From contig CABMEV010000001.1 in NCBI GenBank assembly GCA_902385255.1, positions 50,496-82,495 on the forward strand: a stretch of DNA of 32,000 nt, written 5' to 3'. Positions 3,095 to 28,971 of this stretch are shown piece by piece. The DNA comes from Candidatus Tiddalikarchaeum anstoanum. GTDB taxonomy: Archaea > Nanobdellota > Nanobdellia > Tiddalikarchaeales > Tiddalikarchaeaceae. Within the stretch, counting starts at the first letter, position 1. Each line of letters opens with the position of its first letter. The notes below the pieces were generated by a model that saw only the letters and a list, made by a program, of their open reading frames with translations, made no database searches and was not told the DNA's origin. A program made the position numbers and the translations under genes.

Positions 3095-3199
3095 AACTAA
3101 ACTTTAACCCCCTTTAAATAAAAAGATACTATCAAGTCATTTATAAAACCTGCTATTCAATAATATTAATAAATATACAACGCCTTAAAACGCATAATT

Positions 3200-4474
3200 A
3201 TGAGATATGAAGACTTCATAAACTTAAAATACACCCCTAAAAGTGACGATTTAATCTGTTTATTCAGAATAACACCAACTAATGAGTTTACCTTGAAAGA
3301 AGCAGCGATACGCGTCGCCGCAGAATCAAGCAATGGCACATGGAGCGACTTGAAAGTCCCGGAGCATATTTACGAATTAAGCGCTAAAGCTTATGAAATC
3401 AAAAAAGACTTTGTCAAAATCGCATACCCAGTAGACTTGTTCGAACAAGGAAACATGCCGCAGATTTTGTCATCAATAGCCGGAAACATATTCGGAATGA
3501 AAGCAGTATCAGGCCTCAGGCTTGAAGATGTGAAATTCCCGGAGAAAATTATAAGGAGTTTTAAAGGACCGCAGTACGGCATCGACGGAGTACGTAAAAT
3601 ATTAAAAATAAAAAACAGGCCTATAACTATTACTGTTCCAAAACCAAAAGTAGGATATTATCCTGAAGAGCATGCCAAGATAGCATATGAAGCGTGGACT
3701 GGAGGAGTAGACTTGCTAAAAGATGACGAGAACTTGTCAGACCAGTCATTCAACAGGTTTGAGAAAAGACTAAAACTTTGCATGAAGATGAGGGAAAAAG
3801 CCGAGAAGGAAACGGGCGAAAAAAAAAGCTATCTGATTAATATCACTTCCGAAACTAATGAGATGATAAGGCGCGCCAAAATGGTCAAAGATTATGGCAA
3901 CGAGTATATAATGATAGATACTTTAACTGCAGGCTGGGCAGCAACCCAGACAGTAAGGGACGCTTGCCAGGATTTAAAACTAGCCATGCACGGCCACAGA
4001 GCATTTCATTCAGCATTTGACAGGAACCCTCTTCATGGTTTAAGCATGAAAGTGGTAACCAGCGTTGCAAGGATGCAGGGAATAGACCAGCTGCATATTG
4101 GAGGAATGGGAAAACTTGCAGGCGATGAGGAAGAGGTTGAATCAAATTTTGAAAAGTGCTAATTAGATTCGAACGCTGAAAATGAAACAATGCTGCCGCA
4201 GGAATGGTTCGGCAAGAAGAAGATGCTAAGCATATGCTCAGGAGGGCTTCATGTCGGAATATTAAAACCAGTATTCGACCTCCTTGGAACTAATATTGGA
4301 GTTCAGATAGGAGGAGGCATACACAGCCACCCTGATGGGACTCACGCAGGAGCAATGGCAGTCAGGCAAGCAATCGATGCTTACATGAAAGATATTGCTA
4401 TAGAAGAATACGCGGAGAAGAATAAGGAGCTCAAAAGAGCATTAGACAAGTGGGGAACAAAAGTATACGAATAA
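3200..4474 (+). CDS. rbcL: Form III-type RuBisCO large subunit, interrupted by one in-frame TAA at 4160..4162 (ORF segments 3200..4162 and 4190..4474, same frame)
   Basis: N-terminal YxxFxxLxYxPxxxDLI, PKPKVG (KPK), LLKDDENL, HGHRAFH, GMGKLAGD. After the stop: SGGLHVG and GGGIHSHPDG. Codons 4163..4189 (LDSNAENET) are open in the same frame. Confidence 0.85.
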
Positions 4475-4479
4475 AATTT

Positions 4480-5142
4480 TTAGATGTATTTTAATACATC
4501 ACTTATCTTATTCAATTCATAATCCGCTTTTTCTTTACCTTTTATGAACTGCCCATACTTTGCAAGGGCAGTTTTCATTCCTATCTTTTTCCCGCCCTTA
4601 ATATCCCTGTTTGGATTATCGCCAACGAATAATATTTCACAAGGTTTGATATGCAGTGTATTAACAACTTTCTTGAAAGGAATAAGATTAGGCTTCCTGT
4701 GGCGCGTATCTTCGAAAGTGATTACGCAGTCGAAATAGTCAACTATTCCAAGATTAGTCAGCCTCACCCAAGCCTTCACTTTAGGAGTATCAGTTAACAC
4801 TCCGAGCTTTATGCCTTTTTTCTTAAGCGCTTTCAAAGTCTTAACGACTCCATTGTAAGGCTTTACGACAAAATACCTTATCTGCCTATACGCTACGATT
4901 GCAGCGCCGAGTATCTTATAATCAACTACGCCGTTTACGTGTTTTAAGAACGCCTGAAAAATAGTCTTGCTCTCGTAAAAACTTTTCCTATAAATCTTCA
5001 TCAGAATGTCATAAGCATCCTCGCTGTCCATCTCTAAACCTGCCTTAATCATAGCTTTAATAGCTGCATTTACGCAAGCAGTTTTTATCTTAACATAATC
5101 AGTCAAAGTATTGTCTATATCAAAAAGGACAGCGCGTATCAT
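4480..5142 (-). CDS. HAD-superfamily hydrolase (subfamily IA-like phosphatase)
   Basis: MIRAVLFDIDNTLTDY (DxDxT), GVLTDTPK, VGDNPNRDIKGGKKIGMKT. Start placed at the Met just before the DxD motif. Confidence 0.8.
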   Translation of the reverse strand: MIRAVLFDIDNTLTDYVKIKTACVNAAIKAMIKAGLEMDSEDAYDILMKIYRKSFYESKTIFQAFLKHVNGVVDYKILGAAIVAYRQIRYFVVKPYNGVVKTLKALKKKGIKLGVLTDTPKVKAWVRLTNLGIVDYFDCVITFEDTRHRKPNLIPFKKVVNTLHIKPCEILFVGDNPNRDIKGGKKIGMKTALAKYGQFIKGKEKADYELNKISDVLKYI

Positions 5143-5179
5143 ACTATTTATTAAAATACAAATTAACATTAAGAATATT

Positions 5180-6094: not shown

Positions 6095-7093
6095 GTGGAA
6101 AATAAAAAAACAGTGTTCTCGATATTCACTCTAATTCTGGGTATACTGCTTTTTATAATAACAGGCAGGTTCATCATCATAATACTGACTAGTATTTTCA
6201 TAAGTTTCCTAATCAGGCCGTTGTATAAATTAGTCAAAAAAGCAATCAAAAACAGCACCATAAGCGCAGTAGTGTCCGAACTATTAACACTATCCTTAAT
6301 ATTTTACATAACCTTCTTCGTATTCAACAGTGTATATTATCAGATAAAACTCCTTGGTTCATCATTCATAACTGAGACATTATTCAACGTTAACGAGTCA
6401 TTGTTTAATAACTCTGCAAATCTGGATTTTAACAACTTATTAACACTTGAAACTTTTAACAACTCGCTTAGTTTCCTGCAAAGTGTAATAACCAATACGC
6501 CACTCCTCATACTTGACATCTTCCTAATCATCTTCCTGTCTTATTATTTCATAAAAGACTCTGAATTAATCCAGGATACTATTCTTAACATGATTCCAGC
6601 CAGGCATAAAGAGCCGATAATACGATTTTTAAAAAGGTCAAAGAGCATCAGTGAAGAAATACTTTACAGTTACTTCCTAACTGCATTATTCGTCGGATTA
6701 TTATTGTTCATACTGTTAAACATGCTGAACGTTCATTTCTCGCTTGACTATGCAATCTTTGCAGCTATCGCTTCGTTGTTCCCGATTATAGGCACGTGGA
6801 TAGTGCCTGTCTTTTTGGCAATTTATTTCTTTTTCAGAAGCAATTACTTTGTCGGAGTTATATTATTGATTTACGCAGTCCTCATAGTGTACATAACTAA
6901 TGTTTTCAGGTTTATTATTAAACGAACGCATGAAAAAGTCCACCCTTTGCTTTTCATAATGGGTGTATTCGTCGGATTTTATTCGCTGGGCTTTCTCGGA
7001 TTCCTGACTGGCCCTATAATTTTTGGAATACTGCAAATAGGATTTGAAGAAGTTTTCAGGGAATACCTTAAAAATGCCAAGAAAAAGCCTTAG
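6095..7093 (+). CDS. AI-2E family (PerM/UPF0118) transporter-like membrane protein
   Basis: 332 aa, multi-TM, with a C-terminal G-rich helix region FIMGVFVGFYSLGFLGFLTGPIIFGIL typical of the family. GTG start, TAG stop. Confidence 0.55.
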   Translation: MENKKTVFSIFTLILGILLFIITGRFIIIILTSIFISFLIRPLYKLVKKAIKNSTISAVVSELLTLSLIFYITFFVFNSVYYQIKLLGSSFITETLFNVNESLFNNSANLDFNNLLTLETFNNSLSFLQSVITNTPLLILDIFLIIFLSYYFIKDSELIQDTILNMIPARHKEPIIRFLKRSKSISEEILYSYFLTALFVGLLLFILLNMLNVHFSLDYAIFAAIASLFPIIGTWIVPVFLAIYFFFRSNYFVGVILLIYAVLIVYITNVFRFIIKRTHEKVHPLLFIMGVFVGFYSLGFLGFLTGPIIFGILQIGFEEVFREYLKNAKKKP

Positions 7094-10027: not shown

Positions 10028-10144
10028 GGGCGGGTAGCTCAGTCTGGTGGAGCGCTAGTCTTATAAGACTTGCACTAGTACAAAAAGTTTTTGGCTCAAG
10101 TCTGAGTCAACTAGTGGCCGGGAGTTCAAATCTCCCCCTGCCCA
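10028..10144 (+). tRNA. tRNA-Ile (anticodon UAU, 10062..10064) with a 43-nt intron at the canonical 37/38 position (about 10066..10108)
   Basis: Acceptor GGGCGGG/CCTGCCC, D arm GCTC-AGTCTGGTG-GAGC, anticodon stem CTAGT/ACTAG with loop CTTATA|A, T arm GGGAG-TTCAAAT-CTCCC. Intron has internal helix AGACTTG/CAAGTCT. No encoded CCA. Confidence 0.8.
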
Positions 10145-12402: not shown

Positions 12403-13320
12403 ATGAAAGTGCTCGAAGTGAACCATTTCAAAAATATGATTAACGAGACGGTTAAAGTCATCGAGGACAAGAAGGACTACTTAAATTATATAAATGTATA
12501 CCCAGTCAGGGACGGCGACACCGGAAACAATTTATTATCCACATTTAAGAATACAAGATTGTTGAATGAGAAGGCAAACGTCAAGGATTTCCTGATAGAC
12601 CTGAAAAAATTAGTATTAACCGGAGCCAGGGGAAACAGCGGAGTAATAATCTCACAATTCTACAAAGGATTCTGCAACCACCTCATTGGGTCCAAGAATA
12701 TTGGCACTTTCGAATTCGCAAAAGCAATAGAGAACGGCTACTACCAAGCGTACAACTCCGTAAGTAAACCTGCCGAAGGCACAATGCTCAGCGTGTTAAA
12801 AGGAGCAAGCATAGGTGCTATCAAAGTATTAAAGAAAAGCGAATCAGTAATAGATGTATTGGAGAGCTCATTCAAATCAGCGCAAAAATACTTAAAAAAA
12901 ACTGTGAAACAGATTCCCATACTTAACAAGTCAGGTGTTGTAGATGCAGGCGGCTTGGGTGTTGTCTACATGCTCGGCGCATGGATGCGGGCAATAGGAG
13001 TACTGCCCAAATATGACCCTTCAATTAACAACTTGATATTAAAAGAGCCGCTTAGCAGCGGGATCAAAAATAAGTACTGCATATCAGTCTTAATTAAAGA
13101 CTGCAAGCATGAAAAAGAGCTGAAAGACCTTCTTAACTCACTTGGTGACTCATTGGACATAGGGGGAGACATTAATGCAGTCAAAGTTCATATTCACGCC
13201 AATGATTACGAAAACGTTAAGGCTGTATGTTCAGCATTTGGTGAATTATCAAGTTTCGAATATGACAATATGATGGAGCAAAATGAGAAAATTAGAGAAT
13301 ATAAAAATAATAACGGATGA
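12403..13320 (+). CDS. fakA: Fatty-acid kinase FakA-like protein (Dak2/DhaL kinase domain plus central domain; lacks the usual C-terminal domain)
   Basis: INVYPVRDGDTGNNL, GARGNSGVIISQFYKGFC, KPAEGTMLSV, GVVDAGGLGV and GDSLDIGG..VKVHIHA...YDNMMEQNEK line up with staphylococcal FakA residues ~1-330 as I recall that sequence. Confidence 0.8.
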   Translation: MKVLEVNHFKNMINETVKVIEDKKDYLNYINVYPVRDGDTGNNLLSTFKNTRLLNEKANVKDFLIDLKKLVLTGARGNSGVIISQFYKGFCNHLIGSKNIGTFEFAKAIENGYYQAYNSVSKPAEGTMLSVLKGASIGAIKVLKKSESVIDVLESSFKSAQKYLKKTVKQIPILNKSGVVDAGGLGVVYMLGAWMRAIGVLPKYDPSINNLILKEPLSSGIKNKYCISVLIKDCKHEKELKDLLNSLGDSLDIGGDINAVKVHIHANDYENVKAVCSAFGELSSFEYDNMMEQNEKIREYKNNNG

Positions 13321-14104
13321 GACTATTGATTTTTATCCAAGCTTTAATGAAAAAGAAATAGTCGTAATCAAAAACCACTTATTCCTGAACGGCAAAGAAG
13401 TTAGCCTGACAAAAAAAGAATTCTACGAGAAGATAACCGACAAGAAAAATCATTTCACAACAAGCCAGGCAAACCCTGAAGATTTTCTTGAAGTATTCAA
13501 AAAATATTCGGATTATAAAATTATAGTGATAACTGCGACTTCCAAGATGAGCGGCATAAACAACAGCGCAAACATTGCAAAAAAAGAAATGCCAAATAAT
13601 GATATTGCAGTAATAGACTCGGAGTCGTTAAGTGCAGGCCTCTCAATACTGGCAGATTTAGGATTACACCTAATCAAAGAAGGAGAAAGTTATGATAATA
13701 TTGTTAAAAAACTTGAAAACTTAAAACATAAGATAAAACTATTCTTCTTATTGACAAACCTTGACTACCTCGTGTCAAGCGGCAGGGTGAATAAAATAAT
13801 CGGATTCCTTGGAAAAGTAGTCAATATGAAACCCTTATTGGAGATTAAGGAAGGTGTGTTAACCAGCGCAGGAGCAATGATATTATCAAAAGATATGGTT
13901 AACTCTTTTTATGAATTCCTTGAAAATAAAATAAGAAATACGCATAAGATATTTATCATACACAACAACTTGGATGCTGAAATGAGGGCGCTGAAAAGTA
14001 AACTGGGACGAGGATATGACATTGAAATCATAAACTTCTTAAACACGCTTCTTGGCGTTTACAGCGGACCTGAATGCTTGGCAGTAGGATGGGTTGAAGA
14101 ATGA
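13283..14104 (+). CDS. fakB: DegV-family fatty-acid-binding protein (FakB-like)
   Basis: IKIITDETIDF, TTSQANPEDF, ATSKMSGINNSANIA, VIDSESLSAGL, LDYLVSSGRV, KPLLEI, GVYSGPECLAVGW. GGAG lies 5 nt before the ATG. Overlaps fakA by 38 nt. Confidence 0.88.
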   Translation: MRKLENIKIITDETIDFYPSFNEKEIVVIKNHLFLNGKEVSLTKKEFYEKITDKKNHFTTSQANPEDFLEVFKKYSDYKIIVITATSKMSGINNSANIAKKEMPNNDIAVIDSESLSAGLSILADLGLHLIKEGESYDNIVKKLENLKHKIKLFFLLTNLDYLVSSGRVNKIIGFLGKVVNMKPLLEIKEGVLTSAGAMILSKDMVNSFYEFLENKIRNTHKIFIIHNNLDAEMRALKSKLGRGYDIEIINFLNTLLGVYSGPECLAVGWVEE

Positions 14105-14697
14105 CATACGGCATTTTCTTGTCATGCATAATCAGCTACATTTTAGGCAGTTACCCGACTGCTTATTTCATAATCAGGATGTTTGAAAGAAAAAACATAT
14201 TCGAATCAGGTGATAAGAATATGGGCGGAACCAATGGATTAATAATATCCAAATCATATAAAATATTTTTCCTGATAGGACTAGTTGATATCTTAAAATC
14301 TTTTTTCGCAGCAGTAACATCTTACTACATAATTAAAGATTTCTGGCTGGCAGCTTTATTATCCGGGATATTCAGCACTCTTGGCCATAACTACAGCGTA
14401 TTTAAAAATTTCAAGGGAGGAAAAGGTGCGAGCACTAATGCAGGAACATTCTTTTTCATAAATCCATCAATGATGGTTTTATTCCTGCTAAGCATAATGG
14501 TGTTATCATTAAGCAATAAAAAATTAAATTTTACGAATAATGAATTCGTCGAGTCAATATACAGGATGATATTATTTTTAACGCTAACATCACTATTTTT
14601 TCCAGACTTCTTCATTCACGCATTAGTGCTGCAATCATTGTCTGTTTTAAAATACGCAACTGAAGGACAGTTTAGCAAAAAAATTCTAGAGTTTTAG
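14101..14697 (+). CDS. plsY: Acyl-phosphate:glycerol-3-phosphate acyltransferase PlsY
   Basis: YILGSYPTAY, GDKNMGGTN (aligns without gaps to GSGNLGATN), DILKS, LGHNYSVFKNFKGGKGASTNAG. ATGA start/stop overlap with fakB. Confidence 0.85.
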   Translation: MTYGIFLSCIISYILGSYPTAYFIIRMFERKNIFESGDKNMGGTNGLIISKSYKIFFLIGLVDILKSFFAAVTSYYIIKDFWLAALLSGIFSTLGHNYSVFKNFKGGKGASTNAGTFFFINPSMMVLFLLSIMVLSLSNKKLNFTNNEFVESIYRMILFLTLTSLFFPDFFIHALVLQSLSVLKYATEGQFSKKILEF

Positions 14698-17202: not shown

Positions 17203-18591
17203 TTGAAAATTGCTTTCTTCACTGATAGTTTCCTGCCGAACACAGATGGTGTTGCAGTCGTAACTGATGAGATTGCACAATACCTGGCCAAGAAAGGCCA
17301 TAAGATAACAATCGTATGCCCCGGCAATACGACTGAGATAGTCAAACAGAGCGGCTATAAAGTCATCAGGATAAAATCTTACAGCATAAAATTGTATGAA
17401 GAGCACAAAGTCTGTTTTAAAACACCAGAGTATCTCGAGCAACTGGATGATTTCTCAAAATATGACTTAATCCATTTGCAGACTAACGTAACACTTGCAT
17501 CAATAGGATTCATGGTCGCCTTAAAATATAATAAGCCGATAAGCTGCACTTTCCATACTAACATCGCTGACTTTGTGACTAGTTTTTTTGACGAGAACGT
17601 ATTGATGGGCAAGAAAAATATAATGTATGACTTAATCGGAAAAAACAAGATAATATTATCCATTTTAAGGAAATTCTCAGACAGCATAATGTGGAAACTA
17701 ACAAGGGATTTCCATAACGCTGTGCCTTCAACGTCCGTCCCGTCACATTATTGCAAGGCGCTCCTGAGGAAGAAGGGAGTAAAGAATGACATATTTGTGA
17801 TTCCAAATCCAGTAAATCCATCGCACAGCGGCCGCGAATATTTCAAGAAATTCCCAGTTAAAGACAAATTCGTACTGCTTCACGTCGGCAGGTTAAGCGT
17901 TGAAAAAAGGGTCAACCTGTTAATAGAAGCCGCAGCGGAACTTAAAGACAAGATTCCTAATCTGCAGATTATTATCTGCAGCGAAGGCCCTATGAGAAGT
18001 TATCTTGAACGAATTGCAAAGAGGAAACACGTGGAAAAAATAGTCAAGTTTACAGGATGGGTTTCAAGGGATGAGTTAAACTTTTTGTACGAGCAGTCAA
18101 GCATAGTGACAGGCTTCGGGCTTTTTGAAACGTTCAATCTCTGCATTGCTGAAGCATTAATTTACGGAAAGCCTGTAGTGGTTAGTGACGCTGGACCTTT
18201 AAGTGAATTCGTCAACAATAATGGTTTTGTGGTTCCTGTTAATAATGAGGAAGTTGTTAAGATATCAGAAAGCATATTAAAATTATACTCTAATAAGTCA
18301 TTGTATAACAAGTATTCATTAAACAGCAGGAAATTAGGCAAGGCTTACAACTATGATGACACCATGACTGTTTTTGAAAATTACCTGATTAATTCGGAAA
18401 AGGCCAATAAGATATTGTTTAAACATTATGTGAATTATATACGATACGTTTCCTCAATAAGTGCTGCTATTAACACGTTATTCTTCACCTTAAGCCTTAA
18501 GTTTAAACAGTTTGATAAGATACAAGAAGCCATGGATGACTTTATAAAAAGTGTCAGTTCCTCACTGCCTAAGTTTAAGAAATCTTTTTAA
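17203..18591 (+). CDS. GT4-family (GT-B fold) glycosyltransferase with a ~80-aa C-terminal extension
   Basis: MKIAFFTDSFLPNTDGV start, HVGRLSVEKR, FETFNLCIAEALIYGKPVVVSD (EX7E-type region). TTG start 4 nt after the GT2 stop. Confidence 0.8.
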   Translation: MKIAFFTDSFLPNTDGVAVVTDEIAQYLAKKGHKITIVCPGNTTEIVKQSGYKVIRIKSYSIKLYEEHKVCFKTPEYLEQLDDFSKYDLIHLQTNVTLASIGFMVALKYNKPISCTFHTNIADFVTSFFDENVLMGKKNIMYDLIGKNKIILSILRKFSDSIMWKLTRDFHNAVPSTSVPSHYCKALLRKKGVKNDIFVIPNPVNPSHSGREYFKKFPVKDKFVLLHVGRLSVEKRVNLLIEAAAELKDKIPNLQIIICSEGPMRSYLERIAKRKHVEKIVKFTGWVSRDELNFLYEQSSIVTGFGLFETFNLCIAEALIYGKPVVVSDAGPLSEFVNNNGFVVPVNNEEVVKISESILKLYSNKSLYNKYSLNSRKLGKAYNYDDTMTVFENYLINSEKANKILFKHYVNYIRYVSSISAAINTLFFTLSLKFKQFDKIQEAMDDFIKSVSSSLPKFKKSF

Positions 18592-19224: not shown

Positions 19225-19560
19225 ATGAACAATAAGAAATTAGCGCTAAAAATCAAAAGCGTATTATGCTACTCAGGACTGCCTGCGTTTATATTCCTAA
19301 ATTCCAAGGAGAATATAATAAGATTCCATGCTAAACAAGGAGTTTTACTGTTCATAACCGCGGTTTTAGCGCTTTTCATACCTATAATCGGGTGGATACT
19401 GGTTTGGCCCTTCGTTTTTGTAAATTCTTTCATAGCTGCAGTCAAAGCGTGGGATTTAAAAATGTGGAGCACGCCTATTACTAACATTGTCAAAACATTC
19501 AAATTTAATACGGAGGTGAAATGTTTTGGTTTCAAAAAAAGTAGCAAAAAAAGAAGTTAA
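19225..19560 (+). CDS. DUF4870-like membrane protein
   Basis: FHAKQGVLLFI motif and 3 TM helices. Paralogue of the next gene. Confidence 0.6.
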   Translation: MNNKKLALKIKSVLCYSGLPAFIFLNSKENIIRFHAKQGVLLFITAVLALFIPIIGWILVWPFVFVNSFIAAVKAWDLKMWSTPITNIVKTFKFNTEVKCFGFKKSSKKRS

Positions 19561-19870
19561 AAAAGCAGTAGTAAAAGAGGAAAATGCAAGTAAAGGAGAC
19601 GTTGAATCAGGAAAGACTCTTGCAGTAGTTTCATACCTCTGGATTGCAGGTTTTATAATCCTGTTCACAGAGAAGAAGAATAAATTCGTAATGTTCCACG
19701 CTAAACAAGCAGCAGCACTAGCAGTAGTAGAACTAATACCTGTAGTGAATTTTGTTGCGGCAATAGCAGGACTGTACGGAATAATAACTGCCTTGCAAGG
19801 TAAACAGGTAAGAATTCCTTTAATGTACGAATTCGGAGAATGGATTTACAAAACGTTAAATCCTCAATAA
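19526..19870 (+). CDS. DUF4870-like membrane protein (tandem paralogue)
   Basis: FHAKQAAALAV motif. TTG start 9 nt after GGAGG (19512..19516), which is complementary to the 16S 3' end. Confidence 0.6.
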   Translation: MVSKKVAKKEVKKAVVKEENASKGDVESGKTLAVVSYLWIAGFIILFTEKKNKFVMFHAKQAAALAVVELIPVVNFVAAIAGLYGIITALQGKQVRIPLMYEFGEWIYKTLNPQ

Positions 19871-23592: not shown

Positions 23593-25060
<1,468 letters not shown>

Positions 25061-27681: not shown

Positions 27682-28971
27682 ATGCACCTCGAAAACTTGC
27701 TGAAGAAGGTTACTACGAAAAAGTTAATCTCATTTTATAATATTGTTGAGAAATTAAAAACTACTATGAGGTATGATAACCAGGAGGGTATTGCTGACTC
27801 TGTTGCTGACCATTCTTTCAGGCTGGGTGTCATGGCATACTTAGTTGCCGAGCATTATAACCTTGATATTGACAAGACTAAAGCGGTTGATTTGGCTTTA
27901 ATTCATGATATGGGCGAGTACTTGCATGGTGATGTGGACCAGAGAAAGATAAGGGAGGGAGTGGTTTCGAAGGATGATAAGGAGAAGCTTGAAGAGGAAG
28001 GTTTAAATGAGTTAAAAAAAGCTCTTCCAAGGACTATGCGTAATTATCTGTCGAATTTATGGGAAGAATATAATTCTTTGTCAACTCCTGAGTCAAAGTA
28101 TATTAAGGCGTTGGATAAGTTGGAGAGTATGCTTCGCATATCCAACAAGGGGTATAAAGTGTTTATGCCTTCATTCACTGGCGAGAATGATGGCGCCCAA
28201 GCGAAGCTGATAAATTACGCGGATAATGCTGTCCGCTCATATCCACCTCTTGCCTGTTTGAATTCTATTGTTAAGAATAGGATTAAGTCAGAGTTTGACA
28301 AAGTGGGTTTTTCGTGGCCTAGTTCCTGCAATGAATTCCTGGATTCCGGATGCTCTGATGATTTGGTGCAGATTGTTTCCTTCCTTGATACTATTGAGAA
28401 TTTAAAGTGCGAGCTTAGGTATGGCAAGGTTAAGACTAGTATGAGCGAGTCTGTTGCCGGCCACATGTTCAAGCTTGCAGTTATGACTTTCAGTTTCGCT
28501 AAGCAGTACGATTTGAAGCTTGATGTTTATCATGCGTTAAAGCTTGCTTTAGTTCATGACTTGGGTGAGTGTTTCGAGGGTGATATTCCTGCTGCTGACG
28601 TCCACTTGGGTGAGATTTCCAAGGAGGAGAAGTTCTCTATTGAAGAACGCGGTTTTAAAAAACTCTGAGGGTTATTGCCTGAGAATTTAGGCACTGATAT
28701 TTTAGATTTATGGAAGGAGTATGAGGTCGGGGCGACGATTGAGTCGCAGTACGTTAACGCATTGGATAAATTGGAGGCCCAGCTTCATGTCTGCAGCGTT
28801 GGGGAACATCGTTTATTGAAGAGTTACAGTCTAACTCCTGTTTATGCTGACAAGGCAGTTCTTAGGCTTAATATATTTAAGGATATGCTGCAGAGTATTA
28901 AGATTACTATGAGGGCGCAGTTTGAGAATGAAGGTTTAGAGTGGAAGAAGGATTATAACCTGTTTATGTAA
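27682..28971 (+). CDS. Tandem-duplicated YfbR-like HD-domain phosphohydrolase (5'-nucleotidase-like), interrupted by one in-frame TGA at 28666..28668 (ORF segments 27682..28668 and 28675..28971, same frame)
   Basis: Repeat 1: ADHSFRLGVMAYL...LIHDMGEYLHGDV...YIKALDKLES. Repeat 2: AGHMFKLAVMTF...LVHDLGECFEGDI...*...YVNALDKLEA. Confidence 0.75.

Follow-up and report, generated by a model that had tools for sequence, protein, structure and literature searches.

The stretch of DNA analysed here, referred to below as the window, comprises 32,000 nucleotides of contig CABMEV010000001.1 of the archaeon Candidatus Tiddalikarchaeum anstoanum and contains a gene for type III ribulose bisphosphate carboxylase (RuBisCO) that is broken by an in-frame stop codon. 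The gene reads as one frame of 424 codons at positions 3200..4474 of the forward strand (position 1 is the first letter of the window), and the TAA codon at 4160..4162 is the only interruption in it. It is probable that the sequence represents a null allele of this RuBisCO that is real and very young, being either still segregating or a nascent pseudogene. By comparison with the nearest kin, the stop is the result of one C>A transversion at 4161, which changed the codon of Ser321 from TCA to TAA.

The interrupted gene and its annotation

The window belongs to LFW-252_1, a metagenome-assembled genome (MAG) and a member of the DPANN archaea (Nanoarchaeia, order CG07-land / Tiddalikarchaeales) from the groundwater of a radioactive-waste trench (PMC8561730). 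The source study counts form III RuBisCO in 19 MAGs and includes the Calvin cycle (Calvin-Benson-Bassham, CBB) in the cell model of LFW-252_1; an interruption of the RuBisCO gene is mentioned neither in the paper nor in its supplement (PMC8561730). In GenBank, VVB74224.1 is 100% identical to the 320-residue piece that precedes the stop, and VVB74226.1 is likewise 100% identical to the 94-residue piece that follows it. Both entries, which lie on one 88-kb contig, are titled 'Ribulose bisphosphate carboxylase [Candidatus Tiddalikarchaeum anstoanum]'. Being deposited as two separate coding sequences, the gene was thus already split in the public annotation.

The two open reading frames, 3200..4162 (320 amino acids) and 4190..4474 (94 amino acids), are in the same frame, as their starts are 990 nucleotides, or 3 × 330, apart. 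The original prediction, made from the sequence alone, had described one shared frame with a lone TAA followed by nine open codons (LDSNAENET), all of which was borne out by re-translation. It had also distributed the catalytic motifs between the two sides of the stop, and their positions and alignment agree with that placement: KPK (residues 148-150), KDDE (174-177), HGHRAFH (264-270) and GKLAG (304-308) precede the stop, and SGGLH (347-351) and GGGIHSHPDG (371-380) follow it. The columns of K148 and K150, K174-D175-D176-E177, H264, H266, R267 and H270, H299, K305, S347-G349 and G371-G373 are invariant in an alignment of 20 homologues. They include the lysine that is carbamylated (in KDDE), the His/Arg cluster and the lysine of loop 6 (in GKLAG). 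The presence of catalytic residues on both sides of the stop supports the further claim that neither piece would be sufficient alone.

Codons 1-320 (3200..4159, forward strand), deposited as VVB74224.1, are predicted to encode the N-terminal domain and the barrel strands β1-β6; they match PF02788 (RuBisCO_large_N, E = 5.7e-42) and positions 1-194 of the PF00016 profile (RuBisCO_large, E = 7.5e-55). The nine open codons after the stop (4163..4189, forward strand) belong to the α6-β7 connection and align to LNENKEKED of the closest relative found, the protein P0002. Codons 331-424 (4190..4471, forward strand), deposited as VVB74226.1, would form β7, α7, β8, α8 and the C-terminal helices. They correspond to positions 213-299 of PF00016, the whole stretch after the stop matching positions 206-299 with E = 8e-23; they are open, begin with an in-frame ATG and include the phosphate-binding SGG and GGG motifs. 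According to the alignment, the terminator TAA at 4472..4474 (forward strand) is located where the homologues end (...KVYE).

Comparison with the NCBIfam model of type III RuBisCO, TIGR03326 (rubisco_III), gave 467.7 bits for the N-terminal piece (profile positions 1-323) and 116.8 bits for the C-terminal piece (334-426). Each piece taken singly misses the curated equivalog cutoff of 497.45 bits, and their sum of 584 bits passes it; the intact protein P0002 scores 581 bits. The N-terminal piece reached 189 bits with the form II model and 106-133 bits with the models of RuBisCO-like proteins (RLP/MtnW). When solved structures were searched, archaeal type III enzymes came first (6HUN, E = 1.5e-136; 3WQP and 1GEH of Thermococcus kodakarensis, about 1e-128), and the top protein matches in the databases carry type III names. 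The T. kodakarensis enzyme, of which 3A12 is a further structure, acts in the adenosine monophosphate (AMP)/pentose-bisphosphate pathway. Judging by profile scores and best matches, the gene falls with type III rather than with forms I, II, II/III or IV. It is a type III RuBisCO in all but continuity, it equals intact DPANN relatives in length (424 codons), and its sequence assigns it to the kind that acts in the AMP/nucleotide-salvage pathway. Within the 32-kb window, there is no gene for AMP phosphorylase or for ribose-1,5-bisphosphate isomerase, nor does the source paper list either of them, and no small-subunit gene was found near the RuBisCO gene.

Origin of the stop codon and its position in the fold

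P0002 shows 72-74% protein identity to the window gene. Its gene is present on three independent CG07-land contigs (L081-83) and on a fourth contig from a GenBank MAG. The alignment with the window gene is ungapped over all 424 codons, which rules out a frameshift or a further lesion, as the original prediction had stated. Around the stop, P0002 reads TAT GAA AAA TGC TCA TTA AAT and the window gene reads TTT GAA AAG TGC TAA TTA GAT. The next relative among the matches listed (L001) has TGT TCA TCA, again with TCA at the stop position. Since both P0002 and L001 have TCA there, the stop is one C>A step, at 4161, away from the serine codon of the nearest kin. The codon-321 column contains no stop in any of the 72 aligned relatives among the matches listed, where threonine, arginine, serine, glutamate, alanine, glutamine and other residues occupy it. 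The comparison of orthologues that the original prediction had proposed thus yielded a sense codon in the relatives, TCA in the nearest of them and the same TAA in none of those listed.

All full-length relatives are single open reading frames, and 2 of the 80 loci among the matches listed are cut by contig ends. In one of these (L015, 3042..3998 of PEWF01000036.1, a CG07_land MAG), the contig stops two codons before the site equivalent to the stop of the window gene. It was considered as a related break and rejected as an assembly coincidence: with only 1-3 mismatches between them, L015 and the JGI contigs L081-83 represent one population, and the contig end has no meaning because L081-83 continue with an intact gene. 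As for further copies from the population of the window itself, the protein search gave nothing above 74% identity beyond the MAG's own entries, and the search of the Joint Genome Institute (JGI) metagenomes for the exact DNA flanks of the stop returned 0 matches.

The AlphaFold (AF2) model of P0002, in which the residue numbers are the same as in the window gene, has a mean predicted local distance difference test (pLDDT) score of 91.4. In this model, the barrel helix α6 spans residues 310-321 and the strand β7 residues 343-346, so that the TAA (4160..4162, forward strand), placed at Ser321 by the TCA of the relatives, takes the position of the last residue of α6. In RbcL of T. kodakarensis, S340 is the equivalent residue. 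It is followed by an irregular connection of 21 residues between α6 and β7, a variable stretch of the protein. Standard translation would end after residue 320, at the close of α6, and the 320-residue product would retain the N-terminal domain and (βα)1-6 and would lack β7, β8, the SGG and GGG loops and the C-terminal helices. With β7, β8 and the phosphate-binding SGG and GGG loops lost, the truncated product should be catalytically dead.

Age of the lesion

No relaxed constraint and no further lesions were seen in the 103 codons after the stop. For the window gene, the ratio of the identity of the C-terminal part to that of the N-terminal part is 0.79 ± 0.08, against 0.79 ± 0.07 for other pairs, and the relative-rate counts against P0002 are balanced. 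Identity to P0002 at the three codon positions is 0.74/0.86/0.44 in the C-terminal part and 0.78/0.85/0.44 in the N-terminal part. Invariant columns are kept in 19 of 19 cases after the stop and in 92 of 93 cases before it. The exception is Trp113 (codon 3536..3538), invariant in the 20 aligned homologues and replaced by phenylalanine (TTC) in the window gene; the replacement is conservative and lies outside the active site, and as two bases have to change for it, an error at a single base does not account for it. In a simulation over 309 nucleotides, at least 12-17 random substitutions (4-5%) left the sequence this clean in fewer than 5% of trials, "clean" meaning no new stop and no change of an invariant residue. 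The absence of decay over 103 codons suggests that the lesion is very recent relative to the history of the gene, or is not disabling. If the gene is a pseudogene, then it is a nascent one; the downstream part has kept the look of a sequence under selection, which is why the lesion is taken to be very young.

A second gene with a lone nonsense codon

One more gene of the window, overlooked by the original prediction, is split in the same manner. A tandem HD_3 gene (YfbR-like 5'-deoxynucleotidase; 27682..28971, forward strand), identified by Pfam and its homologues, contains a lone in-frame TGA at 28666..28668. Two HD_3 stretches are recognised by Pfam before the TGA, and profile positions 92-137 match straight after it, within the second HD_3 domain. 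The distant homologues (415-432 amino acids) are continuous across the column of the TGA, and GenBank annotates the first 328 residues of the gene only. Like RuBisCO, the HD_3 gene is of nucleotide-salvage type. A hairpin of 7 bp (UGCCUGA/UUAGGCA; 28676..28693, forward strand) is located near the TGA; the fold of the 100-nucleotide segment has a z-score of -2.2, equalled by 7 of 200 shuffled sequences, which is marginal.

Lone nonsense codons are therefore present in 2 of the approximately 31 genes of the window, with frameshifts in none of the genes assigned by Pfam. The split of HD_3 is of the same kind as that of RuBisCO, which indicates that the phenomenon belongs to the MAG and not to RuBisCO, and the difference between TAA and TGA means that no single recoding mechanism would serve for both splits. 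HD_3 is the only truly split gene of the window besides RuBisCO. Other candidates were rejected: the pair 16444/17203 represents two different abutting glycosyltransferase genes and not one disrupted gene, 19225/19526 are tandem paralogues and not a frameshifted gene, and at 7091 a gene simply ends in the normal way.

Start signals in the window

Sequences upstream of 25 genes were compared. A run of at least six A/T bases is present at -36..-21 of 23 of the 25 gene starts, and GGAGG is found at almost none. The RuBisCO start codon is preceded by a putative TATA-like box, TAAATATA, at 3170..3177 (forward strand), that is, at -30..-23 from the ATG, and the lack of a Shine-Dalgarno sequence before this ATG gives the gene a promoter layout of the leaderless type. 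The pattern suggests that the mRNAs of the window are mostly leaderless. GGGAGG was seen ahead of the gene at 17203, which lies inside an operon.

A complete archaeal 16S rRNA gene is located at 23593..25060 (forward strand), and its 3' end reads ...GATCACCTCCT. The comparison with the anti-Shine-Dalgarno sequence used the 16S 3' end ...CACCTCCT and gave no match ahead of the ATG at 4190, the in-frame start codon that follows the stop of the RuBisCO gene.

Weighing of the explanations

Among the three alternatives named in the original prediction, a nonsense mutation fits best, with its single C>A change and the absence of downstream relaxation; readthrough found no support, and an artefact has become the main rival. 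The case as first described is accurate but ordinary. Several points weigh against a null allele. We infer the C>A change in the DNA and its frequency in the population from the assembly consensus, not from reads, and the coverage is low (2.1, 1.8, 2.9 and 4.6× at the single time points, 11.5× summed); a depth of some 11 reads is too small to tell a fixed allele from one that is not. According to a 2026 survey, which leaves the truncated allele of the type genome unmentioned, 7 of 7 high-quality Tiddalikarchaeales MAGs have rbcL, so a loss of RuBisCO would be unusual for the lineage. In a compact DPANN genome, moreover, two nonsense-split genes out of about 31 are many, and the lack of downstream decay suits a functional gene as well as a young pseudogene.

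If the stop were a consensus or assembly artefact, the true gene would be intact, with TCA (Ser) at codon 321, and the A at 4161 would be an error from sequencing or from the library, or an unrepresentative minor variant that entered the assembly, an explanation that is considered unlikely. The reads (NextSeq 2x150) were co-assembled with MEGAHIT v1.0.2, no polishing being reported, and both the unpolished co-assembly and the low coverage over four time points speak for such an error. C>A is also the class of change that results from oxidative damage in library preparation. Besides, the RuBisCO gene is otherwise flawless, the presence of another lone nonsense codon in the 32-kb window could signal an assembly-wide quality problem, and the searched collections hold no independent assembly of the population that would allow a cross-check. 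However, the k-mer filter and bubble popping of MEGAHIT require that a consensus base be backed by several concordant reads, which random Illumina errors or low-fraction damage rarely give, and the base at 4161 is for this reason probably real. The approximately 20 Pfam-assigned genes of the window, moreover, show no frameshifts or other defects. A different way to keep the gene functional would be readthrough, in which a near-cognate or suppressor tRNA decodes UAA at some frequency and yields a full-length RuBisCO of 424 residues at a reduced or regulated level. The frame open on both sides of the stop and the intact downstream part are compatible with it, the HD_3 gene would need the same explanation for its UGA, and the marginal hairpin begins 8 nucleotides after that codon. 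Nevertheless, readthrough is very improbable. The stop is conserved in no relative (0 of 72, among the matches listed), TAA is the main terminator of the window and ends 20 of 31 genes, RuBisCO included, and the RNA after the TAA of RuBisCO folds no better than shuffled sequence (z-scores of +0.38 and +0.97). The stop context is UAA-U, and U after a stop codon is a context of strong termination in bacteria. No suppressor is among the tRNAs found in the 32 kb of the window, which number four (Glu-UUC, Leu, Ala-UGC and Ile-UAU) in a genome with ~1.1 Mb more; TAA and TGA would each require a mechanism of their own; and archaeal readthrough is established only for UGA with selenocysteine (Sec) and UAG with pyrrolysine (Pyl) (PMC8211752, PMC8037382). 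Two related possibilities were excluded: reassignment of TAA to an amino acid, as TAA ends those 20 genes and the conserved C-terminus of RuBisCO itself, and a bypass by frameshifting or hopping, because the other two frames close within 2-6 codons (TAG at 4164..4166 in the +1 frame, TGA at 4177..4179 in the +2 frame) and there is no slippery run.

The enzyme might also work as two chains, the 320-residue fragment and the 94-residue fragment starting at ATG 4190 assembling non-covalently into an active barrel; this is very unlikely. The shorter piece would be made by termination-reinitiation 27 nucleotides downstream of the stop, or from a leaderless transcript through the new TAATTA at -30..-25. 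In the latter version, a split gene would have been caught at birth, with the C>A change making the stop and a TATA-like element together. In the model, the break falls exactly at the end of α6, ahead of the variable 21-residue connection; an in-frame ATG follows nine codons after the stop, and the downstream part is free of decay. Genuine split protein genes exist in Nanoarchaeum equitans, and complementation between fragments is tolerated by TIM barrels. The C>A change extends the A/T run at -30..-25 of ATG 4190 from four to six bases, and 92% of the window genes have a TATA-like run in that region; however, an A/T run of at least six bases is also found at 29% of internal ATGs, which gives a likelihood ratio of only ~1.6-3, and a promoter created by the mutation for ATG 4190 was accordingly tested and found weakly supported. 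Termination-reinitiation coupling is known in archaea (PMC6728339), but no Shine-Dalgarno sequence precedes ATG 4190, and initiation there would face competition from an ATG at 4182, which is out of frame. There is no split in any of the ~80 related loci among the matches listed, and the parallel split in HD_3 is followed by TTG only and not by ATG. We know of no precedent for a RuBisCO large subunit of two chains. Taken together, a two-chain RuBisCO and readthrough of UAA (and of UGA in the HD_3 gene) at a useful level are quite unlikely.

Comparison with known systems

The window gene resembles the split genes of N. equitans in that its host also belongs to a nanoarchaeote-type lineage, and it resembles both these genes and cases of reinitiation in having the break at a secondary-structure boundary with an in-frame ATG close by. 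The halves of N. equitans, however, are separate and usually unlinked genes with expression signals of their own, whereas the pieces in the window adjoin each other in one frame, the second of them has no convincing expression signal, and the split is found in one MAG only. With recoded archaeal genes (those for Sec and Pyl proteins and fucA1 of Saccharolobus solfataricus, which has a -1 frameshift), it shares the property that two halves jointly encode a complete enzyme (PMC8211752, PMC1616953). In contrast to these, the codon is UAA, for which no archaeal recoding is known, and there is no conserved signal, slippery site or RNA structure; the slippery sequence and stem-loop of fucA1 are reported to be conserved (PMC8211752), and the interruption in the window is absent from the orthologues. 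An ordinary young pseudogene or null allele offers the likeness of one disabling change, one step away from the ancestral codon and absent in the relatives. The difference from such alleles is the lack of relaxed constraint downstream, which would make the change very recent, polymorphic or not disabling.

Other features of the window

The G+C content of the window is ~33%. No 23S rRNA gene was found in the 7 kb left after the 16S rRNA gene, so the rRNA genes appear to be unlinked. The sole tRNA-Ala gene is located 4.4 kb downstream of the 16S rRNA gene, past protein genes. The tRNA gene at 10028..10144 (forward strand), found by Rfam and missed by ARAGORN, has an insertion of 44 nucleotides after position 37 of the anticodon loop; it was considered as a suppressor and rejected, being an intron-containing tRNA-Ile(UAU). 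Its UAU anticodon presumably resembles the case of N. equitans.

The gene next to RuBisCO, at 4480..5169 on the reverse strand, encodes a HAD phosphatase. It is convergent with RuBisCO, lies 5 nucleotides from the RuBisCO stop and passes the cutoff of TIGR02253; the next-best models, all far below their cutoffs, include ribulose-1,5-bisphosphate 5-phosphatase, pyrophosphatase PpaX and phosphoglycolate phosphatase. A functional link of this phosphatase to RuBisCO is conceivable, as is a bypass that it might provide.

A cluster of bacterial-type fatty-acid kinase and acyltransferase genes, YloV/FakA-like, DegV (FakB-like) and PlsY, is located at 12403..14697 (forward strand). The YloV/FakA-like protein covers profile positions 1-302 of 530, with the Dak2 and middle domains and without the C-terminal domain. 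At 19225..19870 (forward strand), there are two adjoining genes of small membrane proteins in different frames, both with the motif FHAKQ.

Implications

An enzyme that works as two pieces or through readthrough would be new biology, and nothing found here points there. The more general caution concerns metabolic reconstructions of MAGs that score the presence of a gene by a match to a hidden Markov model (HMM) or a KEGG Orthology (KO) group, as such truncated alleles are missed by them. Counts of RuBisCO presence in MAG surveys, the 7 of 7 for Tiddalikarchaeales for example, can thus conceal such alleles. The RuBisCO allele may reflect a process by which a host-dependent archaeon is losing genes of nucleotide salvage. 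Should it be genuine and fixed, it would illustrate such a loss in progress, with two genes affected within 32 kb.

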